A DNA stretch of 64,000 nucleotides from Ophelia neglecta (taxonomy: Eukaryota), in contig OZ260664.1 of NCBI GenBank assembly GCA_965285935.1, positions 52,762,001-52,826,000 of the forward strand, read 5' to 3'. Below the pieces are notes generated by a model. It did not search any database and had not been told where the DNA came from. It was given only the letters and a program-made list of their open reading frames with translations. Below are positions 30,164 to 64,000 of this stretch, in pieces (positions within the stretch are counted from its first letter, which is position 1; each line of letters begins with the position of its first letter). The position numbers were made by a program, and so were the translations under genes.

Positions 30164-30393
30164 TAAGTCCATCTGCTTCTATTTCAGGGTGTGAAAAAAA
30201 AATCGAACTGAATACCAGAACGGTGGGAAGTGGCCGCCCTTGTGTTGGAACAGGGTTTTTTTGTTGTAGCTGTTTTGATCCAGACTCTGTTGATAGTAGT
30301 AGGCAGGTAGTTTAATGTACACAAAAAATAGTGTATGACAGAAATACCCTAAGGCTGATCTTGGTCTTAAAGTGCAAAGGATACAATAGCAAA

Positions 30394-31530
30394 ATGATAT
30401 TAGTGCATCGTCACTTGTTCAAGTATGTTTCTTCAAAGGGAAAATTTCTCTCCTCAAAACTATGGTCTTCCACCGGGTCAAGAAATTTTTCAGAAACTAT
30501 AGCCCTCATATACAGAGAACATGGAGATCCAGTCAAAATGCTACATGCCGAGAAATCACCTCTCCAAAATGTAACTGGTGACCATGTTTCCATCAGGATG
30601 CTAGCTGCTCCCATCAATCCATCAGATATCAATCAAATTCAGGGAGTTTATCCTGTTAAGCCATCCCTCCCAGCAATTGCAGGAAATGAGGGTGTTGGAG
30701 AAATAGAAGAAATTGGTCCTTTAGTCAAGAACCTGAAACCAGGAGACTGGGTTGTACCAGCAGATGCAAGCTGGGGTACATGGAGAACAAGGGCAGTGTG
30801 TCCAGAATCCGAGATCCTACAAATCCCTAATGACATCCCTGTTGAGGCTGCTGCAACCATGGCCGTCAACCCTTGCACTGCATATCGCTTGCTTTTAGAT
30901 TTTGAGAAATTGGAACCAGGAGATATTGTGATACAAAATGGGGCAAACAGTGGAGTTGGTCAATCAGTCATACAAATTGCAGCTGCCTTGGGCTTAATCA
31001 CAATCAACATTGTTCGTAATCGGGAAGAAATAGGAAGTCTTACCAACTACCTTGAAGGGCTTGGAGCGACTCATGTGATCACAGATGACTTCCTAAGGAC
31101 TCCAAATATGAAATCTATGATGAAATATCTTCCAAAGCCTAAACTGGCATTGAATTGTGTGGGCGGAAGAGCAACTGCTGATCTGCTGAAATACCTAGAA
31201 AAAGGCTGTACAATGGTAACTTATGGTGGTATGTCTAAGCAGCCAATCATGATTCCCGCAGGCCCTCTAATATTTAATGATGTCAAGCTGTGTGGGTACT
31301 GGAACACTAACTGGAACAAGGAAAATAAACATAATCCAGCAAGGGCAGAAATGTGGAAAAACTTGTCAGACATGATCCGTAATGGAGAATTAAAGGCACC
31401 AACATACGAATTTATACATATGAAGAAATATCATGAAGCTGTTGAGAATGCCATGAAGCCATATATGTCTGCCAAACAGATCCTGGCCATTTCTGATGAT
31501 CTAATTGAAAAAATACATTTACATCCATAG
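30394..31530 (+). CDS. MECR: Mitochondrial trans-2-enoyl-[ACP]/CoA reductase (MDR superfamily), 378 aa, single coding exon
   Basis: Motifs MLAAPINPSDINQIQGVY (catalytic Tyr), GNEGVG, GTWRT, AATMAVNPCTAY, QNGANSGVGQSVIQ, LALNCVGG, VTYGGMSKQP and GYW. The basic/Ser-rich N-terminus looks like a mitochondrial presequence. The first in-frame ATG is 30394; the track ORF starts at a GTG. AATAAA at about 31705. Confidence 0.95.
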   Translation: MILVHRHLFKYVSSKGKFLSSKLWSSTGSRNFSETIALIYREHGDPVKMLHAEKSPLQNVTGDHVSIRMLAAPINPSDINQIQGVYPVKPSLPAIAGNEGVGEIEEIGPLVKNLKPGDWVVPADASWGTWRTRAVCPESEILQIPNDIPVEAAATMAVNPCTAYRLLLDFEKLEPGDIVIQNGANSGVGQSVIQIAAALGLITINIVRNREEIGSLTNYLEGLGATHVITDDFLRTPNMKSMMKYLPKPKLALNCVGGRATADLLKYLEKGCTMVTYGGMSKQPIMIPAGPLIFNDVKLCGYWNTNWNKENKHNPARAEMWKNLSDMIRNGELKAPTYEFIHMKKYHEAVENAMKPYMSAKQILAISDDLIEKIHLHP

Positions 31531-42687: not shown

Positions 42688-44216
42688 AAGGTGCTAGAGT
42701 GGATGACTGGTTCTCAAGCACGCTTAGCAGGTAGCCGAGGAGAGAAGACTAGGCGTTGCAACGACGGCCCAGTAGTGGGACGAAACACGGGATAGTAGGA
42801 TAAGCTGTTGCGGAGACATCACGGAAGTTGGCCAGACGGGAGCACTCTTTGGGGCGGGTTCCCAATTCGAATATAAAGTTTATATAGATCCACGTATATT
42901 TCTCGCCAAGCGCTTATATAGCAGATTTATTTTCATTTTATTGGGGATTTCAACAGTTTGAACAGTTTATATACATGTATATACTATATATATGACCTTT
43001 TATTCATTCTTATAAATATCTATATATAATCATGGTCTATAATTATAATATAGAGCTATATAGCCTAGGCGTATACATATTTATATATACCATGCCGGGC
43101 AATCACAAATCAAAAGTAGAAAAAAATCTGCTCTAAGTAGAAACCTCAATCTGACATCACAGTGTCCCACTAACTTTAAAAAATACATTGTTCACATAGT
43201 GTTGGTAGAATTGTTGGTTCCTTGTGCATGGTATTTCCCTTGTTGGTTTCACATGTTTTTCTTATTTCATCAGACAAATATAAATCTAGATGTGCATAGA
43301 GTCAATCAAATATTATAGGCCTGGCCTACGTACATAGACTAGTCCTAGTCAGATTAACGTTCAACAAAAACAACAAAAAATGTGGGAATATGTTTAGTTG
43401 AACGGGCATCGCCTCCGAAAGAAGCCTTTGATTGGAAGAAAATGTGGCCCACAATATAAATCAGGTCGCTATTGAAGAAAAATGGTTTAGGCCTAGACCT
43501 ATCTAAGATATCTATAGCTAAAATATTGTGGCCCATAAATGAGGTTCCATGGTGGCTTACATTTCCATCGCCTTTACTTTCGGAGAAGGATAAAAACTTT
43601 TGGACAATTGTCGGGTTAAGGCATCACGTTCTCCAGGAGTTTTTGCGCAAAATAGAACACGCCTCGGGGGAGAGGGTTCATAATACCAGACGGGATGCTC
43701 CAGGCAAATGGGGTACCTTTTAATTATTATTCTACGGCTAAGGAGTCGCCGAACACATTTCGTTACGGCTATGGGGTCGGCATTTTAAGCACTCTTTCAT
43801 ATGGGTATGGGTGTGTTTTTCTGCTAGTATCCCCCCCCCCCTCTATTCCCAATTTGAGTCGGAGACATAACCCTCTCATAACCCTTTAAGTAAAGGGGCT
43901 TCGGATCCATCTGAAAGGCTAAAATGTGAAAAACAAATTGGCACTTTACATAGTCTACCAGAGACCTTCTATATTAATCCCAGAGTCAACAATTAGCGTG
44001 AAGCAAATTATTTAATAAATGTGGTGCTGGACCTATAATACATTTCAAATTTTTGCCTGTGCGCTGATAAAATTATTCATGGCTTCTGAAGCCGGCATCA
44101 TATCCCGTTCTCCCTTGAACGATTTAGACCGATTTTATAGGGAGAAGATACTTTTACGATTTTTGTTGTTGTATACATGGTGAGGGTCAGAGGTCACTTC
44201 TGTGTTATGAGAGAAA

Positions 44217-47200
44217 ATGGGTGCTTCTGTGCTGATTGTATGGGGATATTATACCCTAACTCTAATTCCTGCTTTGATTCTGCCTATATTACTTATAGCC
44301 GTTTATCAGAGGAGATCGCACAAAAACTATCCGCCATGCGAAAGTGGTTTGTTACCATACGTGGGCTGTGCGATTAGGTTTGGAAAAGCCCCTCTGTACT
44401 TCATCAATGAAGCCTCAAAGAAGGTAATGCAGGTGCTGGCAAGCAGCTCGAGGTTGGGGGGGGGGGGGGTGCATATAAAGGGGCACACCCTAGGCCTACA
44501 TTGAGGCTCAAATTACAAATTAAAGGGGTCAAACTCTACATTATAAATAATGATAGGGTCTAACTCTACATTGAGACTAATTTTTCCTAAAAAAAAAAGG
44601 GGGGGGGCAAAACTCTACGTCATGTACTTTTCCCCGAAAAAGGGAAAAAGGGAGGGCAATACTGCGGCACCTATGCACTATTAAACCAAGGTAAAGTGTG
44701 TGCCCGCGTCCCCCCTCTCTAAAGGTATCCCCTTCATAACCATCCAACACACCCACGACTGAACAGGGCATATACCACTGGGTTAAAAAACATGAACAGT
44801 TAGGGTGGTGGGAAGGCCAATATTGATGTGCTAAGGGCTGAATTTGGGCTTTAAATAATGTTACAAAACTGATGTTAGCTTTGCATAACAACCGACGTTT
44901 GTGTGGTCAGAAAAGTTATATCCAGTGAAACAAGGAGGCTCTCCTATTTCAGTGGACTTACATGTATGTTCAGCCACAAAACAAACCCCCCATGCCCTCA
45001 CGCACTAGAGATCTCCATATTGAATTCAGAGCAGGGTGTACATAGTGAGATGGGTAGTGCAGAATGTGTAATTTTTATTTCCATGCAGAGAAGGCCTACA
45101 ATATCTTACTATAAATGGTACAGGTGCTTTTGCTGAAAAAAATAGATATTGTTTTGACAGTTTTCTTTTCTTATAAATCTTTAGACATCCATTAAACAAT
45201 TGACCCAGTTTATAACATGGGTTGAGATAAAATTGTGTCATAAGGTTAATTTCAAACAGAACCTACAATTTACATTTTTTCTTATTTTCAGTTGGGGCCT
45301 GTATTTACTTTGAAGGTGGCTGGCAAACGCTTGACTTTTGTCCCTCAGGTAGAAGACTTCAAACATTTTTTCAATTCAACCAATGTTGATTTTCAAAAAG
45401 CTGTGCAAAAACCAGTTAAATATGCAGGTATGTAGGGGTTTATACATTTATGTACCAGTACTATTTCCTTGTTTCTTTAATTTAAAATGGTTTGTTATCC
45501 AATCAAAATAGAACTAACTAGGTCCTAATTTCTACAAGTCAAATACAATGCCAGGTGAAAAATTATTGTAATATCAATTGTCTTATCCCTCCAATTTTTA
45601 GCATCTGTGTCTGCTGAATCCTTTTTCCAATATCATACCAAGATTCACGACACAGTAAAGGGCAGGCTGGCATCTACACAGTTGGAACCATTCTGTGTGA
45701 AATTGGGAAATAAATTTACCGAACAGTTGGATTTATGGGGCAAAGAAGGTAAAGTCATGACACATTATTGTGTGTCAACATACTAGCCTACATGATTAAT
45801 AAGATGTAGCCCTCCTTCTCTGTTGTTGTAAAAGATAAGTTATAAATGTTACATTCTCATTTTAATGTTCTTATTGTAAACATTCTAGGTGAAGGAGATT
45901 TAAATGAAATGGTCAGAAGTGCCATGTATATTGCTGTGCTTGATAACCTTTTTGGAGAAAATGTTCTTCCAACAACACAAAAGGTCAGACATTCATACCA
46001 TAGGAAGACTCATTTGAAACAAAAGATAAAATGGTTTTATTTCAGACTGTGTAAAGAACCATAATTTGTGGTAAATTACTTCATGTTTTGTGCTGCAAAT
46101 GTATAACTCCTCCATTTTCCAAATTATGTATTGTTGTGGTTTTGCCACAGGTTTCGGCTGTTTATAACAGCTGTTATTTTTTGCCTTCTTTTCCTTAGAT
46201 ATGTTCTGCTGTCAATGCATTTTATTATTAAAACAAACAAAAATGTATTTTCTTTTCCCATTTTCATCTCCATCTGATTTTTTTTTCTGAAAAATTCTGT
46301 TAATTAATTTATTAATTTAAATTTATGTCATATTATAAGTTGCATTTTGTATATAAATGGGTGGTCACCTTATAACTTTTACCTCTGTACAATCATGCAA
46401 TATTTGATATTTGATATTCTTTCACCCTAATTAACTTAGATAATCATATGTTCCTAAATTCAAATTACCAGGATGCATATTCAGTGTTAGAAGAGCATTT
46501 TGTGAAATATGATGATCAGTTCGAATATGGATCTCAGCTGCCTGAATTCTTTGTGAGGTAAAAGTATTTAGTAAAACTAGATAGTTTTAAGAGTATTATC
46601 GAAGATGATGAAATGGAAATCTAAGTAAATTTCCTCCACTTTTGAATCAGTTTGAAAAAAAAACCATTATTGAGAAGGTAATGCAAAATCTCCAAAAGCA
46701 CAAATTTAAGAACTAAAGCATTCTTTTTTGCCAGAGATTGGGGCAAGTCTAAACACTGGCTCTTGGAGAGGTTTGGTGAGATTGTAAAGAAACTAGAACA
46801 ACAGAAGAAAAAAGTGTCTAATTCAGAGGAGGTCATACACTTCATTATGCCTACAATATTATATGCAGCATTTAATGTCTATGATAATAATAACAATCAG
46901 TACAATTATTCCCTTTGAGGGAATTTCCTATGTTCAGAACACAGCTTTGATTTATGAGTCAAAGTAGTAACTTACTGTTTGAGTAACAGATAATTGCTTT
47001 TAATTATCAAAGTCTTTCCAAATTAATGTAGAACCCTACAAAATTGTTTCTTAACTATTCATTCACATAAATTTCATGTTGATGCCATTTCAGACAGTTT
47101 TTGAGACTTTAGTCGGTATGGTTGACCGGCCTCATGCTCCTAACTACGGCCTGCTGATGATGTGGGCTTCACTTGCCAATGCAATTCCTGTGTGTATTTT

Positions 47201-49271
47201 ACACAAAGTTATACCTCTAACTATGTGTGTAATGAGCTAACTATCATTAATAAGTACAAATAGTTTGATTTATTTGATTACATCAGAAGCAGTTTTGTTG
47301 CATATAGGTAGTCATTTTTGTAGATTATTGATTCAATTTTTAAGTTTTCTTTATATTCTGAAGTTCATAAATGAATGTATTAAGTTCACAGTATATAACT
47401 TAATACTGATGGCTCCTTCATTTTTAAAATCACATACACACATTAGATATTTTTATTGAGAATCAATAAGTTTTATATATTAAATCCAGATGAGCATAAA
47501 ATAATAGTGCATTTGGTGGATGATTGTGTTTTTTGTGGTATTCTTTTAGATAACTTTTTGGACCTTAGCATTCATACTTTCCCACCCGGAGGTGGCAAGG
47601 GAAGTAAAAGCCGAAGTGAAGAAAGTCCTCGGGTCAAATAGTAAAGGTTATCTGTGATTGGCAGCAAATAACACATTATTTATTATTCAACATGAAATGT
47701 TTGTGGGCATTTTCTTCACAATTACGCCATCCTCGTTCTGATTTTTCAATAAGATACCTGTTTTACACATTTTTTCAGACCTGAAAGATCTCAATGTAAG
47801 CCAAGGTGACCTTCAGCTCATGACCTCTGTTAAGAGATGTATCCTTGAGAGCATACGTTTACGTTCTCCTGGAGTTATTACCAGAGGAGTTAGTAAAGCC
47901 TTTACACTCAAGGTACATATTTGTAGGACTTACTTTGGGACTTAACAAATATTGTCAAACCTTTAACCTAGCTACCCTTAATGGTATCAGATTTGGAGTT
48001 CACATTATTTGCTTCCTTATAATTTTGAGTTTTAGGATATCTGGTTGATATTTATAAGTTGAAAATTACACTATTAATGAATGCATATATTTTGCTGAAT
48101 TCTGGTCCAATCAATCAGTAGGATGTAAATATAGAGTCACAGTATGGTGTCTGGTTAATGTAGACCCAGTAATCAGATTGTGATATTATAACAGGGCTAT
48201 ACAATACCAGCAGGAGACCTGTTGATGTTGTCACCGTACTGGGCACACCGGAATCCAGTACTTTTTCCAGATCCAGAGGCTTTTAAACCAGTAAGCAATG
48301 TCTTTCAATCATTTTTTTTTTTCTCAGAGACTTAGAGGTATTTTTATAAGGGAAATTTTTGGTTTAATGATTACAAAGTTGGAACAGTCTTATAGATTTG
48401 TATGAGTGACAGGTTATTATGACTTGTTCTTTATAGACCAGGTTCCCTACCAACTTTTTTCACTTTGAGTGTTGGCCATGTCAAAGAGCTCCCATAATGT
48501 TGTTATGAACATGACATTGACTTTTCCTAGAAATTGGATGAAAAATGTCGCTTGAAGACCGTTTTCTTTTAGTTACATTTTATTCACCTAACAGTAAAGC
48601 TCTCATGCCGACCAGATTTGCCATTTTTTGATAGTGCAGCCTTTAAGATATCAGACCACCAAATAGAAAAATTCACAAACAAAGTGAATTTGTTTAAAAG
48701 GCCCATTTGTAATAAGAAACATCCTATACTTCAGCCCCTATCTTTTCAGGATCGTTGGAATGCTGCAGACCTTGAGAAAAATATCTTCTTGGATGGCTTT
48801 GTAGCATTTGGAGGAGGAAGATACCAGTGTCCTGGGAGGTATGAGAGTTAATATATTGAAATAGGGTTTGATGGGGTATTAATCTTATTAAATTTAGATA
48901 TCAGATAAAATCTAACTTTTAATCGTTAATGGCATATACTAAGGAGAGAGGATTGACTTAACAAAATGGTGGAATAATGCATGTTTTTCATTAATAGGTG
49001 GTTTGCCTTACTAGAAATTCAAATCATCATAGCCATGATCATGTACAGATTTGATATTGAACTTCTGGATCCTGTGCCAAAACTTGTAAGTATTTTTAGA
49101 ATACGTGTATATATATATTGTACAAATTGTTCTATATATACAAGGATTGCTTGTGCCTACATTTAAATGGTTCTGTATGGTGGCCATTTTGTATTTCAGA
49201 GCCCTCTGCATTTGGTAGGAACTCAGCAGCCGGAGGGTGGCCTCAAGGTTCACTATAAGGTGACCAAGTGA
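44217..49271 (+). CDS. CYP39A1: Cytochrome P450 CYP39A1-like (oxysterol 7-alpha-hydroxylase family, clan 7), 479 aa, 13 exons
   Basis: N-terminal TM anchor, then PPCESGLLPYVGCAIRFGKAPL, YDDQFEYGSQLPE, the clan-7 I-helix NYGLLMMWASLANAIP, ESIR (ExxR), PEAFKPDRW and the heme motif FGGGRYQCPGR. Exons 44217-44423, 45292-45427, 45602-45748, 45889-45983, 46472-46557, 46735-46831, 47094-47189, 47550-47646, 47779-47912, 48195-48290, 48750-48838, 48998-49085, 49200-49271. Confidence 0.9.
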
Positions 49272-52200
49272 AGCCCAGGCTCCTTTCTCAACATGTCCGT
49301 CCCGGTGTTAAGGCATATATTCATCATTAAGGCTTCAATCAATAGATAGTGAGCTCACAGGGCCCTGTTCCCAGGGTGCACTCAAGATAAAAAAGGAGGC
49401 TGTAAGAGAGTTACCATCTTTGAATAATACCCCCTTTCCACTGATTTCTGGTACCAAATTCACCTCTTTTTACGGAAAAGGCTGATTTTTCATCTTAAAA
49501 ACATCCCTTTAAAACATTGAATTTCAAGTGACTTGTTAGGTAAGGGAACAAAATGCTTAATAATTTGATTAGACCAGGCTATTTAGCAAAGAAAAATTAT
49601 AATATGTTATGAAAACAACCATGGACACCTTCTGGCCTCCAACTTGAGTAAATAGTCAAGGTCTTTCCTTTTTATTTCTTAATTATGTGCAAAGCCATAT
49701 TTCATGGACATAATAAAAGTTAACTGTGATAAATTATTTAATATCAGCTACAGCTTTTGTATTTATCCATATAATGAGAAATAAATGAATAAATAATTAT
49801 ATTTACCATTCAAATTAGTATGAATTATATTTTCACAATCTTTGAGAGATTTAAAATAGTACTGTCTTGAGCAACCATTTTTTTCTCAGGTAGAAAGAGT
49901 AAATAGATCTATATGTACTTACAAAGGTGCAAAACCTTAAACATTAGGGGCAGCAAATTAAGATTTTACAGTAGTATGGTTATTAGTATTGGTAAGAACG
50001 GGTATCATGAGGGCACAGACACTGATATAGTTTAATTTATTTAGTATTAAAAAAAGACACAAACTAATAAATTTGGGTACATCATAAATTGTTTAATGAC
50101 ATAGATCAAATTACAAAATGTCATTGAATGTACATTTTACATGGAGTTGAAGCGTGTGACATAGCTTGCTTTCTATACATTAATTTTCCTTGCCTTCTTT
50201 GAATTTTATTACACATACATATTGGGCCTGTCTACTAAGGAATGTGGGTAGAAAATTTGAAATACACAACATGAACTATTTAAGATATTCATAAGAAATG
50301 TGAATTACACAATTAATTGTGAAAATGTAACTGCTATATCTGCATTTAAATCTTGCCTCATAAACCAAGATGATGGACATGGCAAGGGAGGGGTCCAACA
50401 CGCTAATTTATGCGAGAAGCTATAGCATCTAGAACTACTTACCTTCACATATTCTGTATCTGCTTTGCAGATAACCCAATAATAATAATATTTGCACCAA
50501 TCATACTGGCTTTTTTAACCTGAACACCAGCAAGTTCTCTTACAAAATAAATGAAATTGGAAGGGACCACAGGAGCAGGAATTAAAAAATTGTACATTTT
50601 GTCTTTAAGCTTATCAAGCAACATCTGGAAACTGGTTTTAAGTTACAATACCTATAATAAAATGCTACGTTTGGAGACTATCTCTCACAAGATTGGCTTA
50701 ATTTAGACTATTAACATAGTAAGCACATACTATCTGGCACCGGTCAGGATTGAGACAAAACCTCCACTATACACAACGCATGTTCAATGAGAAAGGGCCC
50801 AAGCTAGCTCAACTGAGCCATTCAGAATATACAATACTGTACAGGGAAGATGTAATTAGATTTCAAGGTCTACCTCTCACATTTACCAACATGAGCAGAG
50901 ATTTTTAAAAATAAAAACCAAAGCTGTACCATCTGATATATCAATTAAGATATTTGGGATGGCATAGATTGTTGCCTTTTTTCAGGTATTGACTATGATA
51001 GCTAGGTAGATGAATGAATAGGAAACATGACTTTTACCATAAATCATATCACTCCTTTCCAAAGTGTTTTTTGCAGGAGGTAGAAAACCAAGGTAATACA
51101 CATGAAAATGGGAAAATACACAATTTTAAGACCACCCCTACTGGTTATACAGTTAAAAATCATACTTAGATGTTGACACCTAATGTTTTCAGCTCGCATG
51201 ACACACTTATATTTTAAGTTTAAAAAAAGCAAGAAGATTCCCTTAAATGTAAAGTTTTTCCCTTTTATGCAGCAAGATCTATATCATTGTACATCCACCA
51301 AAAGAAAGTACTCGAAAAACCCTAAACAAATAAACAAAAATTCATTTCAAATAACACACACGGTGGTGTAAGTAAATGTATGTTGGAAAGGGTGTGTGAT
51401 GTGGACTCCAATGGATTATGGGAAAATAAAGCTAATTTCAAAGGAATCTTCTGCCCGGAAGGAAAGGAATAGTCATAAAATGTTGCAAAGTTTGTACAGC
51501 AGGAAACACAGAATACATACTGGTCCTATGGACATCTTAGCATGAAACATACTTAAGCTATATTTGCTATATACGTTTGGCAATTCATCAACTGAGACAT
51601 GTACACCCATCAAAATGATAAAAAAAAACATCAATTCTACATACCAAAGCAAGAAGAGGTTATCACAAGATTGCACCTCAGTAGTAAACCTTTTTTTTAT
51701 AGAAAGTTGGGTGATGTGCTATGACAAGCTTGAATCTTGCGCTTCAGTGCCAAACAGAGCACCAACATTAATGGAAACCTATAAAAGATGTTCTATTTAC
51801 ATGTACAAACACTGACGGCTGTAAAAACAACTTACCTAATAGTAAAAGAAATATGTGATAACATTTCAGATGCCAAAAACAAAATTGGCAAGCAAGCAAG
51901 GACTAGATTTCACATCTGATAGACAAAAGTATAGGCATTAAGATATGCACAGCCTGTTTAAATCATAATGATACATTCTACCATTGCCTGAATAAAATAT
52001 GAAAGCAACCAGAGAAATGAATTACTCTTTCTAAAATAAGTAATTGTTTTCTTTAAAATTTGCCCAGGATAAAACTTCTCCGGGAGCTTCAAGGAAACAC
52101 AAGCTTTAAGGGTCACAATAATCCACTCCTGCCTTCCCTGTTAAGAGACACAGGACATGTTTCTAGGTAACATTATTAAGATGTCTGTGCATATCTTAAC

Positions 52201-54389: not shown

Positions 54390-57300
54390 TCAGCTGTCTC
54401 CATTTTGCGGATTGCCGTAGAAATTTTCCACCATGAAGTATCGCACATCCTTCTCAGTGACGCTTACCTGAGGAGAGGGTGAGGAAGTGCTGGAAGGCGT
54501 CTGCTCTGCTCGTGACTGCTCGCTGCTCGACTTCTCCGATGATTGTTTGATTGGGGTGGATGTGGTGATGCCATGGTTTGCGTTTAGCACGTCCTGTCTC
54601 ATGTGAGAGAGTCGCTGCAGGGGGGTGTGCCCCGAGGTCATGGTCTGACTGCCTCGCACCGGTGTAAGTCCAGCACTCTCATCAAATGTACTATTCATAT
54701 CAGAGGAAAGACGGAATGCTTCCGAGCCAGGTGTATCTGACAGCCCGCCGTCCGAGGCAGTCACATCCGAGGCCAGAGCATCAGAGGAGGTGGCATCAAT
54801 CGATGATTTACCAATAGAGGCCTCCCGACTGCCAATCAAACTCTCAGAATCACCCATGCTGACTGACGTGTTTGGGCATAGGAACCAATTTGAACGTTTT
54901 TTCATTCGCAGGATTTGACGTCGGCGAACGTTGTCAAACCGGCTTAGGCTTGTGGAAAGATACATACGCTTGGTGCTGGACAGGTTTTCCTGTGTTGGGC
55001 TGCTGCACCCCTGTGGAAACAAAAAAGAAACTTAGAAGAAACATATTAATATCAATATTACTACCAAAATTTAGTCAAGTGATATTCATCATTAAGTTAC
55101 AATGAATATTTGTCCTACTTGCAACTTTTTCTTATGCCTATTGATGTTGGTTAATTATGCTAGATATATCATACACCATGCTTTGGAATTCTTTAATTCC
55201 AGGAGCATCACTTGCCCCCATGTTTGCTTAGCACATTTACATTATTAGTATAATAATCATTTATATTTTGTTTATGTTTGGAGAGGGTAGCCTCACATAC
55301 CGGGACGCCGACCTGATTGACCTCTGGAGCGGAGAGGGAGGAGACGTGAGTCAGTTTTTTGTGGGGGTTGTAGTCCTCGTCATGTGAGTGGGGCTGCAGC
55401 GACTGGGGCGAGGGCGGGGAGGAGGGTGGCAGGCGGATCTCAATGTTAGAGCTCTCCTGAGATGCTCTGGTGTCTGTGCGGGGCCGCCCTGAGCCATAAA
55501 ACTCTTCCTCTGTGATGGCTGTAAACAAGGGGACAGTTAAATGGGAAAAGACTATTAACAAGTAATAATCGAGCTAATACTTGTAGGGTTGTAACACATT
55601 TAATATGATTTTAACATTTACACTCGAAGGGCAAAGATGTTTTGTGGCATATGGTTACCTTCTTGCGAAATTAGGAAAAAAATCTACCTAAATAACTTTA
55701 TCAATGCTTTATTTACAACAGAATGTTGAAATAGATTCATAAAGGTGATAATATTCAGGTTTATATACAGTACCGTATATTCTTTACTATTTCCATAATC
55801 AGTTTTTATTTCATAAAGTACAACTAATATTCAGTGTTGCCCTTTGTTCAAACTTCTCATTAAAAAGAATTGATAGCAAACAAAAAAGTTATCAATGAGA
55901 TAAACCTGTTTCCATCTTTTTGCAATAGATTTGGAAATATAACGCAGGTTTATGGACAATCAAGTTTGCTAATTAAGTTGGCTAATATGGCTTTTCACAT
56001 AATGACATACAATTGTGGTGATCTACAGTGTCATACTTGACACATTCAAATAAACACTAGTCCAAAGTAATTGCGATAATTGAGACAACATAAAATGTAT
56101 AGGGTGTGTCCCTGAATGTTATGGCTGAACATTTATTGATATATCAGTAATCTGATCTAATAGAAGTATACATTAATATTGGTGATTAAAAATAAAAAGA
56201 TACTAGTTTAATCAGACGTAGTAGATAGCTCACCATTCATACGTGTATGAAAACCACGTTTCTTGGCTTCACGTTCCAAATAACATTGATATAACGGGAA
56301 ATACTTCTCCACTACAAGCCATGCAAAAACAAGTAAGTAATCAAACATGCTACATACAAATAAAGGGATAATTCTGTTAGTTCTGACAAACAATATAAAA
56401 TTTACATTTTGGAATAAGACTTCATGTAACATGGGAATGAAAGCAATTTTCAGTCACCTTACACAAGCTTTTGAACTTATTTGTTACCTCTGTATATTCT
56501 GGTACATTCATTGGCCATTGTTTGGAATTAGCTAAATGCAACTGGGTATACTGAAGGAAAACCCAATCTTTACTCTCAAGGTACCAAAGGTGTGTTCAAT
56601 ATGTGTTCTAAGTGCCTAAGATTATGCATAAAAAGTGTCGGGGACCCAATGTAATGGGTTAAAGAACACATTCTAAATGTGTTACTTTTAATAAAAAGCA
56701 TTTTTGTCCTAATGGAGCATGTGAAATGCTAATTACAGATACCAAATATCAATTTATTTGTTTAAGTAATTTGATTAAGGGAGGATTTATATGGCAGACA
56801 TTTTGTCTGTGAGACACTTGCAAGGGCTTAAATAAAAGTTGTGCACAAAATCAGCCATGGTCAAACTTTGTTTAGGGTACATGACAAGTCTATAACTCTG
56901 CAGATTTGTCAATCCGGTCAAGAGCAATCAGCATGGAATGGCAAACAAGGTGGAAAAGACACATCGAGGTCTACATTAATATATCATTGAGCACACAAAT
57001 GAACCTCAAATACCAATAAAACATTACTGAACGATAAAACATATGAGGGATGAAACTGTTATTCTCTTAATGTGTCCAACAGCATACACAAAATACTATA
57101 TAAACTTAAATGAAAAGCATAAAACTGGTGCAAGAACAGTAATGCAAGCTATTAGTATGTTCATTTTACTGTGTATATAAAGTTGCTGGTGATTACATTT
57201 AGGCAAAGCCAATTACAGTGATCTCTGCTATGCAGGGTCAAGCCTAAATCCAAGGAAAAGTGGCCCTGCATTGCAGGTGTCCCTTCATCAGAGGTACTTA

Positions 57301-60300
57301 AACATGTTAAAAATTGGACATGGAATTCAAAAATTGTCCTGCCATTGCAGGTGGCCCTTCATTGGAGGGGCCCTACATTGCAGGGTCCACTGTATCAATA
57401 TATTCACAGACTACATAGACACTGTGGAAAAACTGTTACATGATATTTATATGCTTACGGATGACTTACAAATAGTCTAGCCTAAGTCATAAGAAACAAG
57501 AGCACAAATTTTATTTATTTTTGTTATTTTGCGCTTGATACTTACACGACACTGGGTCAGCATCATCCGGGTACTGGAATTCATAGCGATATTTTTCCTT
57601 CACATTGATCCCTGTCCTCGTCACTTCAGCAAAGTACTTCAGATTTTTCCTCCCAAACATATTAGCTGTGCCATAGTCATCAATTAAAATCTGAAGCACT
57701 CTGACGGCTTTTTCCACCATCTTAGGATCATCAGCACAGGTATGAAAGAGGCTGCCAGCGACACTCTTAGCAACTGCCTCAGACGACATTGTGTTGTATT
57801 CACTGTGGTTGACTATCCTAAACCATGTACCAAACAACAATGCCAGTAACTGTTGAGTCCCATTAGGAAGAGCTGATAAAATGCTGCAAATACATCAAGC
57901 CAACATTACATAAATACAGTAAAAACTGTCATTACAAATTTGTATTGTACATCAGTCAGTGCCTCTTTTCTCATCGGACACATGTTCAGTATATTTTGTT
58001 ATTTATCTGTTGTTAAAAGGGCTAATACAGGTTTTAAGTATTTACCTATGGATTTTGTCATACTGCTGCATTCTGTTATCCAGATGTAGAACCTCCAGTA
58101 ACTGGCATTCTGTGTCTACACCAAACACACCACCCGGAATCTTGAGCAAAAATTTCTGTAAAAATCCCATATGTCAATTTGAATGAAAAATTCATGAAAG
58201 TAAAAAAAATATTTCACCTGACAATACATTCCTATTATATCTTGATATTGTATAAGAGTGCTTCTTTGTCAGTGGTTTCTGGTATGTTGCCTCCAAAGGT
58301 GCAACCAGACCTTTGAATTGATAGCATGTTGAATGTGTAATGTTTCACTTAAAGTACAGTTTTATAACATGGGGTTCTTTACAATAACTACATGAACTAC
58401 TGGCAGGTTTTTTTTTATATAAATCTTTAAATTAAGGCTGGGAACAGTGTGATTGTAGTCTAATGGTCAATGAACCTACCTTTACAACTGAAGCTAGTGT
58501 GTAGAAATTGTAATTGGTGAATAAAACTTCTTTCCCCTCTGTCAACTTCTTCATAATAACCTTCAAGTCAGTTGGGTTCCCAGGCCTTCGAAATAAGTCT
58601 GTTGTGGTAACCCCTTCCTGTGCTATGTACACTATCAAATCCTAGGAAAAGAAAAATAAACAGATCTGACTTTCTGGTGTACCTTTGCAACAGGCATAAG
58701 ACTTGATATATTAAGTAAACTGCATTAACAAAGTTTGTAATAAGATTAAGAATGTAACACAAAATATTTGTGAGTTCTCGACCTGCCACTTTGAATTTAA
58801 AGATGCACCCCATAAATACAAAAGGTACTATAAACCTGCTCTCTGAAATATTTACGCCTGGAGGATGAACAAAACTAAAAATGTTGTCAAGGACCAATGC
58901 CTTCCCCAGCCGACCCCCCAATGTCCCTTACCCCCCCACCCATACACCAACACCACCCTGCATAATTTTAAGGCAGGGGTACCCCCCCCCCCCCCCCTGT
59001 GTAGTGTTGATTGATAATGTCACATACATGTTCTTGTACAGCAAGAACCTTAAACAAACTTACAACTAGGGAAGTGGGAAGAATATCGTCTTTTAAAGCT
59101 TCTGATAGAGGCACTCCAAATTTAACTCTGGAATAAGAGCAAAAAAGGAAATTAATGTAAAATTCTTGCATACAAAACGGGCAATAATCTGCTTCTACCT
59201 GTGTAACAATCCAATAATCTATTGAAAAATTTAATAAAAATAAAATAAACCTATACCAAAAGAACTATGGGAACATTAAATTACTGTTTATACTCCCTAA
59301 CATATATACATGTACTTCAATATAAGGGCCTACACATGTACTTCAATAAAAAGAATCCGGACATATTGTCGGCAATAATTTAGAAACTTTTGAATGAATA
59401 TTTGAGAACCCCTATATTCCAGTTTACACTGGATGCTGTGTTAGTGGTTTAAAAAAAGGAACTGCCATAATTGACACAGAATTGAGGTTACATTATTCAG
59501 GATGTAGTATAAAGTGATGGTATAATTGAAGTGTGTGAGAGCAATGGTTAGGTAAACACTGCATAGTCATTATTTGTATTTATATAAAAGGCAAAGCTCA
59601 ATCTCAACAAATATAGCTTTTATAATAGCATTAAGCTTCTTTTTTATTCACTATCTAAGTGACCTGTTTACAAACAGTAAACTTCTTAGTTCACTTTTAA
59701 TAATATGAATGTCAATGTCATTATAATTTCTAAACCATGGGCTGGTAATTCCAAATAAACACAACACATGTATATTAAAATTTAAAGAATGTAGGATATA
59801 TTTGTTGGTACACAGGTTGATGCATGGTGGTTCATAAATTTATCCAGTCGGATTTTCAGCAAATGTTAGCAAAAAACACTGGAAAAAAAACAGAAGTCTG
59901 TATAGAAATAGCCAAGATTGCACTTTTAACTCTAGGCATTTTTAGGTAAGCAACAACTAATAGCAAAGGCAGAGTAGGAAATTTCATGCACATATTGCAT
60001 AGAGATAACTCTACCGCCGTCGTTTATCCCATTGTTGAGTTCGTTCTGCTGCTATAGAATGACAGACTGGCTGGACAGAACCATCTGACTGAGTAACCAG
60101 TGATGCCTTTTCATCCTCGTAGAGTTCGGTTGAGAGACTTGGCCACTTCCATGTACTCTGATCAGACAGAATGCTGTGGTCAGAAGCAGTGGAGTCTAAG
60201 CACTGAGCAGCAGGGGAGACGACAATCTTAGGTATCGTGAACGGCAATGGCTCAGTTTGATCCATCAGCTCCTGATAAGTGGCAGGCAGAGTATAAAACG

Positions 60301-63109
60301 TTTCCTGAGCAGAACCCCTTTGAGATGAACGTGAAGAGAACCCAGTACAAAGACTAATATCATCAGCACTAGATATTGTATGCCTCTTAGTGCTGCAATA
60401 TTCATCTCCCAGGGAACAGTCTGTTTTTGGTCTGTGCCTTAGATATGGTGAATTCATCAAGTTTACTGAAGGTAGTTTGGAGGCTTTTCGCTTGACTCTT
60501 GGCAATGTAGCATAAGGCTGTTGCTCTATCAAATGAGAAGTAGCAGCACTATCACTGTAGGACCTACGGACATGACTTGGATGAGAAGGTGGGTCAGGGG
60601 TCGGCAGGCCTGGAGGGGATTCTATCAGGCCAGGAGGTGTCGGTGGCTGATGTGCCATATAGTAAGCCTGCCAGACGTCATGAGATGGGTAATCACTCAG
60701 TGTGATAGAGGTGTTTATGGTAGGTGTATCAGAAGAGCCAGTCTGGTGTGACCAGTATCTAGTGTCCACTACAGTACTAAACGTATTACAGCCAGAGGGT
60801 ACACTAAGCTGTCTGTTATAAGAATGTGGGAAGCTGTAAATCTGAGAAGGAGATTTGCCATAATGGGAGGCTCTGTGTTTGAGCTTTCCTTCCTCTGTGA
60901 CTGGTGCCAACAGACATATCTCCCGAGTTGGGTGAACCATAAATTGGTGTCGAACAACATCCAAGGGCATTGCAAACTTTGCATGACAGTGGTAACATCT
61001 GACTGAACTGCATACATCGGCTAGACTCAGTAGCTCTCTGTGAATACAAAAGAATATATCTGTATCTAGGTTATGGTATCATCAAATATACAAACGACAT
61101 AAATCAATAGAATTAAATACCTTTACCGTAATACCTCTAATAATTTGTGCACCTAACATGAATTAATTTTATGGCTATGTGAAAACAATACATGTATATA
61201 AATCATCATTATTTGGGTAACTTCACTATAGCCTAACATTAATAATGTTGCATGTAAAAAAAAAATTAAAATCATATGAAACTATAAAGTGTAATACACT
61301 TTATAGTTTCATGATTTTAATTTTGAAATTTTTATTTTGAATACTCTAAACTTAGTATATTGATGAAATAACACAGGGTTCTAATTAATAGAGGCATTAC
61401 AGAACTTTCTATTTATTTTTCTTTAGAATATGCATATATGTGAATGATATTCAAATCCAATCGAGAATTAGTTTCAATTTTAAGAGAACCTTAAAAAGAG
61501 CCAGTCAAAATGTTAACTTACCACTTCATGTTCAGCTGTGAGTACAAAATATTGCAAATTGCAGGCAAACTGCATCATAAACACACCACAGTCAGCACTG
61601 TGCAAGTGGTATAGAACACTGTTTTCAAACATGTAATGTATGTAGGGAGCATAAACCATACAAAAAGAGAGGGAGGGTTCAAAATCAGGACATATTAAAT
61701 GCAATTGGGGAATATATTAGTAATGCTATAAGTCTTAAGTGAAAAAGATTTCTCTCAATACAAATGATGGATTATACATTATACAATCTTAACTGACAGT
61801 GGCTCTCATCAAATCACATAATAAGTACATCACTGCATTTGCAGTTGAATGGAAACATATTATTAAATTTGTACCAAGTTTGCAAAGGATGACAAAATTA
61901 TATATACAATCAATACTCATAAAGTCATCATATATAAAGGAACAGGAGACAACCGAATTGTACAAGTATACATATACAAAACTATTACAATGTTCACCCA
62001 AAAAAAAACAACGGGCTAAGGAAGTTACAGAAATATTCTCAGATCAAACGGAAGTAGTTTCTGTTGTCAAGCAGGAAACTGGGAGCAAATGCCTGAAACA
62101 TGCAGTTACCATGTTAGGAAATAGTAACATTGTACACATGACACATGCTTGTCCCCAAACACTGGAACATAAGGCTGGCACTTCAAGTATATAATGAACT
62201 CAAATTATACAAAATGTATGTACACACCCATCATGGTATTATAATAAAAAAAACTACATGCGATGTTGCTTGATCTACAGAACACACTGGGCACTTTTTC
62301 ACATTGAACATGCTCTGACACCGGAGCTATGGGGAAAATTTGATAACCATCCTGTCCTAACATGCTCAGATCTTACCACACAATTTTCATTCTTGTGTAT
62401 CAATTTCAAAAATTACACGGCAGTAATAATGTTTTATATGAATCTGTTATTTCTGATGAGATGCTCCCAAAATTCATCTCAAATAATCATCAAGCAGATC
62501 TCCATTGTGTGGCAATGACCTGTGGACACCAAACACACAGCAGTAGGTTGGTACTGGAGGGTTGGATACTCACTCAAGTAGCTGCCTGTCCCTATGTCCA
62601 CTTTGCCCCTGGCTACCGTCCCCATCGTTGTCATGCCGCGACACCATGATGCGAGGCCTTTGGCTTGCCCCTTTTCCTGACATTTTTGCCTGATGCTGGC
62701 TGACAACTCAGCTGCACAAACAGTCAGGGACAGGCACTACTGACCTCCACTAGCTACAACTGTGCTCACGACCACCAACCAACTACCGCTACAACAGCCT
62801 AATATGCTGCGGCAAAGTGCGAATGCTCAGCCAGCAAAATTGGGGCTGCCACTAGGGCGATGGAGCTGCATTCGGGACAGTGGCATGGAAACGGGTGGAA
62901 TAGCACTTCTTGCCTACAAAAGATAGAAAGGAGACAACCAGAGACCAGAGGCAACCACAACAGGCAGTGGAGGGATAGTACAGGGGTGTAGGTGGCTGTC
63001 TACCAGGGCTAGATACTCACTTCACAGGGCGCTTTGGAGTGCGGGCCTGTGCCTGTTCCAGACTGCGATCAGAGACACAGCCTAGCACCAGGCCTCGCAG
63101 CGAAGACAT
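54390..63109 (-). CDS. Rho GTPase-activating protein (RhoGAP domain, ARHGAP20/TAGAP-like) with alternative N-termini
   Basis: RhoGAP motifs VKFGVPL, EGVTTTDLFRRPG (arginine finger), TLASVVKKFLLKIP and NHSEYNTMSSEAVAKSVAGSLF. Core exons 59064-59127, 58480-58641, 58046-58155, 57546-57883, 56234-56311, 55301-55518, 54390-55010. Upstream phase-2 exons 60015-61037, 62574-62683 and 63021-63109. Orthology not certain. Confidence 0.85.
57216..57392. mobile_element. TcMar/Tigger-like MITE, TA target-site duplication
   Basis: TA-cagtgatctctgctatgcagggtc ... ggccctacattgcagggtccactg-TA. The ends are inverted repeats, and cattgcagg(t) motifs repeat internally. Confidence 0.8.
60015..61037 (-). CDS. 1023-nt symmetric (phase 2-2) exon of the RhoGAP gene: C2H2 zinc finger plus Ser/Pro-rich region
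   Basis: Acceptor ttcttttgtattcacag|A GAG CTA... is open and in frame with the track ORF 60011-60970. Donor CG|gtagag. Encodes CYHCHAKFAMPLDVVRHQFMVH. Confidence 0.8.
61126..61402. mobile_element. Tc2/pogo-like MITE with internal AT-rich hairpin
   Basis: TIRs ccgtaatacctctaataatt and aattaatagaggcattacag, with TA on the left. Internal near-perfect palindrome at 61262-61324. Confidence 0.65.
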
Positions 63110-64000
63110 GGACAACTCGCTGCTGAAGCAGACTCAGCAGTATTCTTACAATGGTGCAGTTCACATTGCGGTCCACTCTGCTGCCCTCTGGTGGTGCTCA
63201 TGCACAATGATTATGCACTGCCCAAACTTGGCAGGCCACACTAAACACAATGCACCAAACACAGCAATCTACAGGACAATGCTCCACAGCAGTTCCTTGT
63301 ATTATTTATCATCAGTAGTTTCTGAAAGAAAAAGACAAATTCCTTTTAAGAATGGTTATTACACAAATGGTGAAATTAATAGAAAGCAACATGCTCACTA
63401 CATTCTATAACTTTTGTACAATTGACTATTGTCAATTGGCTCAATTCAATAAGTTAAATATATATATATACCCAGTGTATACACATAGTATATGTGAAAT
63501 GTTCATCAATCACTAAAATCAACTGCAAAGTCCTTATATCAATAAATTTTCAAGGGTATAATCCATTACACTCTTGTACATTTAGCCCATTTGAAGCCTT
63601 GTGGTCTAAATGCACACATCATTAAGTCAATACAACATACATGATTGTGTACTGTAAGAACATAAATGTTAACTTAAAAATAAAATTCTCATTGCACAAT
63701 TAGTCATAAAATATTGTATTTTCCTTAAAAACATTTTTTCTTATATGTGACAGTAAAAAAGAGCTATAGAGATATTGAGTCTATAATGCCCCCTGCCTCT
63801 ATATTTCAGCCTCATAGCTCAAATATGTTTTCTGCCATCTAGTTAAGGAGTTTTTGTCACCATATTGCTGCAGAGGAAGTGGTATAGGCACTAGGGATGT
63901 GCCACCTACCTCAAACAATTTTCCCAGGTCTATGTACCACACCTGTACAAGATAGTTACTACGGCCCTAATGGTTGCCGAGCATTTCCCAAAACAAATGG

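Follow-up and report, generated by a model that had tools for sequence, protein, structure and literature searches.

A probable lineage-specific exon with an extended zinc finger in an ARHGAP20-like RhoGAP gene of Ophelia neglecta

Results

Organization of the RhoGAP gene

We analysed a window of 64,000 nucleotides from Ophelia neglecta (GenBank assembly GCA_965285935.1, contig OZ260664.1, positions 52,762,001 to 52,826,000; all coordinates below are those of the window), focusing on a predicted RhoGAP gene on the minus strand at 54.4-63.1 kb and on an open block in its first intron, here called exon C. The exons, all on the minus strand, were delimited from splice-site letters together with the reading frame. 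Two candidate first coding exons, both in phase 2 at a GTGAGT donor, lie at the 5' end. Exon A (63021-63109) is the coding part of the conserved first exon and encodes a 30-residue N-terminal peptide with an invariant Cys-Val, and exon B (62574-62683) is a candidate alternative first coding exon of 37 residues, not conserved, which may be used in its place. Exon C (60015-61037) is a GC-rich (0.47) open block of 1023 nt that would run into a stop codon at 60013-60011 if its donor were unused. The GTPase-activating (GAP) domain is spread over exons D to G: it starts in exon D (59064-59127), which has a phase-2 acceptor, passes through exon E (58480-58641), which carries the arginine-finger motif, and exon F (58046-58155), and ends in exon G (57546-57883). 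Exon H (56234-56311; 78 nt, phase 1 at both ends), exon I (55301-55518) and the last coding exon J (54390-55010), with conserved C-terminal motifs, complete the gene.

The exon G region just passes the cut-off of the Pfam RhoGAP family PF00620 (25 bits against 24.5, E 1.9e-5), while full-length relatives reach 62-85 bits. The arginine finger is present as an F-R-R motif in exon E, which aligns with the relatives and with the F-R of ARHGAP20. For the GAP domain of one relative (P0011), the closest solved structure is that of human ARHGAP20 (3msx, E 1.8e-20; next entry 3.5e-7), and no Pfam family beyond RhoGAP was found at E 0.01 or better in the six relatives scanned. Judged from these comparisons, the host gene is an ARHGAP20-like RhoGAP of lophotrochozoans.

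A search with exon G returned 17 relatives at 52-79% identity among 261 candidates, the named ones being from annelids, molluscs, a nemertean and tapeworms; the three best matches reach 73-79%, and the best of the named ones, from Owenia, 67%. Several of these sequences are probably transcripts, because they hold many exons in one open reading frame (ORF) on contigs of 1-3.5 kb. In 13 of the 17, an exon A-like peptide is followed by the GAP domain within a few dozen residues; the others comprise three single-exon fragments and one protein with another start. Exon A aligns with 11 orthologue N-termini, and its Cys11 and Val12 are invariant in all 12 rows. The predicted short form without exon C is thus the conserved one. 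Exon B showed no similarity to any of the four orthologue N-termini tested (shuffle p 0.62-0.99); it has a strong donor and a GC content of 0.57.

Some further features of the gene and its relatives were seen in passing. Exon H is the likely conserved cassette of the gene: it resembles a 26-residue segment of the X1 isoforms of the mollusc orthologues in Gigantopelta and Littorina that is missing in their shorter isoforms (shuffle p 0.003-0.004), and similar segments occur in relatives P0009 and P0022. A 14-nt candidate micro-exon at 61535-61522 (minus strand) has an AG ahead of it and a strong GTAAGT donor; joined to exon C or D it breaks the frame or creates a stop. In a Sparganum proliferum gene model (P0031, 930 residues), about 300 unrelated residues, in which no finger or Pfam family was found, replace the conserved N-terminus, possibly a repeat fused by gene prediction.

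Exon C as a single-copy open reading frame

The initial annotation had described the block at 60015-61037 as a frame-neutral exon carrying a zinc finger ahead of the RhoGAP exons, and its geometry was borne out by our analysis. The block is 1023 nt long and in phase 2 at both ends, exon D likewise begins in phase 2 at 59127, an AG acceptor with a pyrimidine tract stands ahead of 61037, and a GT follows 60015. The modelled isoforms starting from exon A also agree with those proposed earlier, at 559 residues without and 900 residues with exon C, and the corresponding models from exon B have 566 and 907 residues. The 341 stop-free codons compare with a longest run of 246 in 20,000 base shuffles, and the GC content of 0.47 compares with 0.31-0.32 in the flanking introns. 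Without use of the frame, a two-change-point fit to GC content alone set the lower edge at 60014 (interval 59909-60017) and the upper edge at 61042 (interval 61021-61054, which excludes Met 60970). Both edges lie only a few bases from the proposed splice sites. The block behaves as a coding exon that begins at the acceptor and not at Met 60970.

Three DNA runs of a single sample, possibly the source individual, gave contigs that cover the introns evenly, and exon C is covered at the flanking depth, consistent with a single copy; this reading concerns copies at 90% identity or more. No indel falls inside exon C among the 12 of 14 indels listed, the nearest being at 61048, 11 nt outside the acceptor. 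Among the 40 of 104 variants listed, five lie in exon C, three of them silent (including both in the finger module described below) and two missense in the tail. The same contigs hold no splice joint among the 15 of 38 joints listed.

All tail motifs named in the initial annotation were found in exon C, and Ser, Pro and Thr account for 101 of the 295 tail residues. The first ~30 residues after the finger, which had been counted with this tail, instead form a conserved predicted beta-hairpin. The Ser/Pro/Thr-rich tail itself (60015-60847, minus strand), with a basic cluster at its end, has no homologue detected. Its similarity to the sequences that follow the module in three module relatives is not significant (p 0.07-0.6), although two of the three pairs of these relatives resemble each other in that part (p 0.001 or less). 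A word-index search of exon C against longer proteins gave none among 2324 candidates, and an alignment search confined to proteins of 1225-3495 residues, a range at which it is uninformative, gave none among 2186.

An extended finger module

The finger C-x2-C-x12-H-x4-H was recovered at 60932-60997 (minus strand; Cys14, Cys17, His30 and His35 of the exon peptide), where the stricter pattern given earlier also fits, and Met 60970 does fall within it, as had been noted. When the residues of the exon protein were shuffled 200,000 times, the strict pattern arose at a frequency of 5.5e-5. One further six-frame match, at about 45925-45996 on the plus strand, is probably due to chance. Because of this second match the pattern alone proves little, and it is the homologues that carry the proof.

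A search over 1.84 billion representatives gave six matches, of which five were retained. These cover residues 5-78 only and comprise four short metagenomic ORFs, on contigs of 0.5-2.4 kb and some apparently truncated, and a gene model of Owenia fusiformis (CAH1784289.1, P0006). The Owenia protein has 699 residues and no GAP domain, lies on a contig other than that of the Owenia RhoGAP, and is recovered at 69.5 bits by a profile built without it. The top-scoring match, P0001, a repetitive plant model from Salvia, was rejected as a repeat artefact: its eight matching stretches lie in the tail only, and it has no finger pattern. Scans with the finger pattern gave 3 viral and 12 metagenome loci, all 15 of them chance matches with stops or without the hairpin motif, and module relative P0005 found no locus in viral contigs. 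The region after the module in P0005 seems to us reminiscent of repeat-encoded proteins that are presumably common in bivalve proteomes.

The four finger ligands are invariant in all six aligned sequences, as are 11 columns in total (R13, C14, Y15, H16, C17, H30, H35, P36, L43, P45 and H58). AlphaFold models of five sequences gave a pLDDT of 92-96 over residues 11-60, with a finger core of two strands and a helix (a strand at 12-14, a short bridge near 20-21 and a helix at 24-34), followed by strands 41-48 and 51-58. The finger itself, as first annotated, is therefore real, and it is predicted to bind zinc. Together with the predicted beta-hairpin it makes up an extended module of residues 13-63 (60848-61000, minus strand), in which Pro36, Leu43, Pro45 and His58 are invariant beyond the finger.

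The best Pfam match of the module, zf-C2H2_11, scores 20.2 bits, under the cut-off of 27, and the relatives are under the cut-off too. Fold searches against the Protein Data Bank (PDB) and viral models gave nothing at E 0.001; the best Z was 3.9, and finger rows had Z 2.4-3.2 over 32-53 residues. PDB matches to DNA-binding C2H2 fingers were at E 0.14-0.63 (Foldseek E 0.8 and above), a PHROGs search gave no match below E 0.06, and the atlas neighbours, with a recognition score under its threshold, are mostly C2H2 clusters or unnamed. The missing fold match does not show a new fold. Given a sub-threshold Pfam match and only weak fold matches, some of them to zinc fingers, the unit is predicted not to be a plain C2H2 finger and is instead, on these alignments and models, a finger plus hairpin of about 51 residues with an invariant third His and without a Pfam model.

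A reading of the finger as a classical DNA-reading C2H2 finger did not hold. Exon C has one finger in 341 residues and no tandem array with linkers, the finger is extended by a C-terminal hairpin, and the base-contact positions differ across the module family, except for Arg29 in four of six sequences (by the numbering of classical fingers). Helix positions -1, 2 and 3 vary among these six, and the conserved hydrophobic position falls at residue 28, one later than in classical fingers.

Absence of the module from RhoGAP relatives

Conservation of the Cys and His residues had been proposed as a check on the finger. It holds for a mobile module on unrelated proteins; it does not hold in the RhoGAP orthologues, since the finger pattern and module profile matched none of 36 RhoGAP-family proteins (best E 1.2) in a comparison of protein sequences, with introns outside it. 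We found no report of a RhoGAP fused to a C2H2 zinc finger in literature searches that were far from exhaustive. The parts available to us of the transposon papers on Kolobok (PMC9587614) and PHIS (PMC4482050) and of a paper on SYDE (PMC8918327) did not identify the module.

Possible splicing of exon C to the GAP exons

The 5' side of exon C is well supported: its acceptor is good, the finger has no Met ahead of it, and the ligands are intact. On the 3' side, it speaks for a join that the GT of the donor at 60015 sits in the last codon, in the phase required by exon D. The codon split at the C-D junction would encode Arg, where exon A joined to exon D would give Lys and exon B would give Glu, and Lys or Arg stands there in 11 of 12 orthologues. 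Of the 337 five-residue windows in exon C, only two have four basic residues, and one of these is at its end.

Several observations speak against the exon being spliced onto the GAP domain. The donor at 60015 lacks the G+5 present in 7 of the 8 other donors of the gene, does not outscore the best of the 12 GTs of the same phase within exon C, and contains an in-frame stop, so that a last exon is an equally good reading of the block. An Arg codon split in phase 2 is in any case common. The join is a model drawn from sequence; neither spliced reads nor transcripts containing exon C were seen, and no protein with both the module and a GAP domain was found among the representatives. The polymorphism signals, in the part of the variants listed, are non-significant (0 of 12 indels, p 0.22; 3 of 5 silent, p 0.087).

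Regarding the upstream partner, the acceptor of exon C is the nearest strong frame-compatible acceptor downstream of exon B. Because exon B is unconserved, would place Glu at a conserved basic position if joined to exon D, and has exon C as its nearest acceptor, a separate promoter driving B-C-D would be at least as plausible as a cassette between exons A and D. The term cassette may therefore be wrong, as exon B could feed exon C as an alternative first exon. The proposed cassette switch and the nuclear role are both unsupported.

Other features of the window

A high-copy repeat with a short internal 16-nt repeat lies in the G-H intron at 57243-57395 (summed contig depth 22,000-102,000), another occupies the window end at about 63679-64000 (depth 685-1948), and a 42-nt deletion allele was seen at 57491-57532. 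At 30316-31530 on the plus strand, an intronless 404-codon frame with ADH_N and ADH_zinc_N, which we take to resemble mitochondrial enoyl-ACP reductase, stands head to head with a many-exon minus-strand gene and is possibly a retrocopy. From their translations, a long multi-exon gene at about 6700-28900 (minus strand) presumably resembles SPAG17/PF6, and a gene at 44200-50000 (plus strand) presumably resembles a cytochrome P450 of the CYP39/CYP7 type; single exons of these two genes gave no Pfam match.

Discussion

We take exon C to be a real and probably functional, lineage-specific exon with an extended zinc finger. In the explanation that we prefer, while giving it only even weight, it is a lineage-specific captured exon in intron 1 that yields a minor long isoform, with the finger as an interaction module and not a DNA reader. 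The intact single-copy frame would probably be spliced ahead of the GAP exons in that minor isoform. From the intact finger and the lack of a Met ahead of it we infer that the acceptor at 61037 is used; the upstream partner would more likely be exon B than exon A, and the donor at 60015 may be used in some transcripts. Use of exon B would swap the conserved Cys-bearing N-terminal peptide, which by analogy would be a likely membrane anchor, for the finger and a low-complexity linker of 280 residues. The module may have arrived as a mobile, possibly transposon-derived, exon: its position near the start of unrelated divergent ORFs, its absence from the orthologues and its place behind an intronic acceptor fit mobile exon capture. 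No terminal or flanking repeats of note were found in 59128-62573, and no module relative was seen in an element context among the viral and metagenome loci. A transposon source of the module is accordingly put forward as a hypothesis by analogy.

Other explanations of the block have to be considered alongside this capture. Exon C may be coding but terminal, with exon B (or A) joined to 61037 and translation ending at 60013-60011 in a GAP-less finger protein of about 370-378 residues, encoded by an alternative last exon or by a nested gene on the same strand. We regard this as a serious rival, although of lower probability than the preferred capture. The weak donor at 60015 holds the stop, and by our estimate a GT would precede the stop by chance in roughly one case in four or five; the Owenia carrier and the four metagenomic ORFs bear the module near the N-terminus without a GAP domain, and no relative has a long insert between the conserved N-terminal peptide and the GAP domain. 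An AATAAA at 59648, 363 nt downstream, would also suit a terminal exon but is uninformative, since each of four other intronic stretches holds 0-3 copies, while the phase match and the basic end of exon C suit a join to exon D. It is unlikely that the block is instead a relic, not expressed, of a mobile element or of a duplicated piece of a gene, its splice-site letters being coincidental. Such a remnant would agree with the absence of the module from all 36 relatives and with the nature of the module relatives, four of which (out of five) are short and in some cases apparently truncated ORFs on contigs of 0.5-2.4 kb. However, the depth of exon C is that of a single copy, in contrast to the true repeat at 57.0-57.7 kb, the edges of the block coincide with splice sites, and it has no stop or frameshift in 341 codons despite at most 49% identity over 55 residues to the relative compared.

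The two remaining explanations concern the finger itself. As a special case of the preferred capture, a cassette between exons A and D could add a classical DNA-binding C2H2 finger and send the GAP to the nucleus, as the frame-neutral length and phases, two basic clusters and the weak PDB matches to DNA-binding fingers (E 0.14-0.63; Foldseek E 0.8 and above) would allow. We consider this improbable, given the single finger without a tandem linker, the varying helix positions -1, 2 and 3, the hydrophobic residue at 28 off the classical position, the conserved hairpin after the finger, and the other upstream partner offered by exon B. Translation could also start at Met 60970, the first in-frame Met of the block, so that the finger is never made. 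This is very improbable, as the four ligands and the R-C-Y-H-C start upstream of the Met are kept as in the family, and the GC edge lies at 61021-61054.

On a wider view, we propose, tentatively and with some doubt, that a mobile finger-plus-hairpin domain with a third conserved His was captured independently by unrelated lophotrochozoan genes, and that here a RhoGAP isoform swaps its membrane-anchoring N-terminus for an interaction module derived from a transposon. The recipient of the captured exon would in that case be a signalling enzyme and not a transcription factor. If the join is real, it would represent a RhoGAP architecture that we did not find reported, and comparison of closely related genomes could date the capture. 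Whether or not the join is real, the finger and its extension form a small domain family without a Pfam model that is worth a profile. The reach is limited to one lineage, without a phenotype, and the capture of exons is an established mechanism.

Among known systems, the host gene shares with ARHGAP20 (RA-RhoGAP) the GAP-domain match of relative P0011 and the arginine-finger motif. ARHGAP20 has PH and RA domains, whereas these were not seen in the relatives of this gene. The module resembles classical C2H2 fingers (PF00096 clan; zf-C2H2_11) in ligand spacing, in the aromatic residue after the second Cys and in its predicted two-strand-plus-helix core; it differs in being sub-cut-off and single, in its conserved hairpin with a third invariant His, and in its varying base-contact positions. 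CAH1784289.1 of Owenia carries the same module near its N-terminus, with 27 of 55 residues identical to exon C (49%), but the rest of this gene model is unrelated and without a GAP domain, and its own fusion is a putative one.

According to a study of single C2H2 fingers (PMC12774644), those with an adjacent beta-strand (IMZF, CGx-Phi type) dimerise, and additions of beta structure occur more often on single fingers and are associated with protein interaction. Exon C likewise encodes a lone finger with added beta structure. Because a lone finger with added strands is, in that account, more often an interaction module, the module here may be a putative interaction or dimerisation unit. In the same account the strand lies on the N-terminal side of the finger and the motif is confined to Diptera, whereas here a two-strand hairpin follows the finger; the CGx-Phi motif is absent ahead of the finger in exon C, and the added strands are C-terminal. 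Host-transposase fusions by alternative splicing, such as KRABINER, SETMAR and CSB-PGBD3, are described in bioRxiv 10.1101/2020.05.07.082677. In contrast to them, no transposase catalytic domain, terminal repeats or multi-copy family was seen for exon C, and the capture would be N-terminal of the enzyme domain. What exon C would share with these fusions is a lineage-restricted foreign domain that lies behind an acceptor within an intron and stands beside the parental short form.

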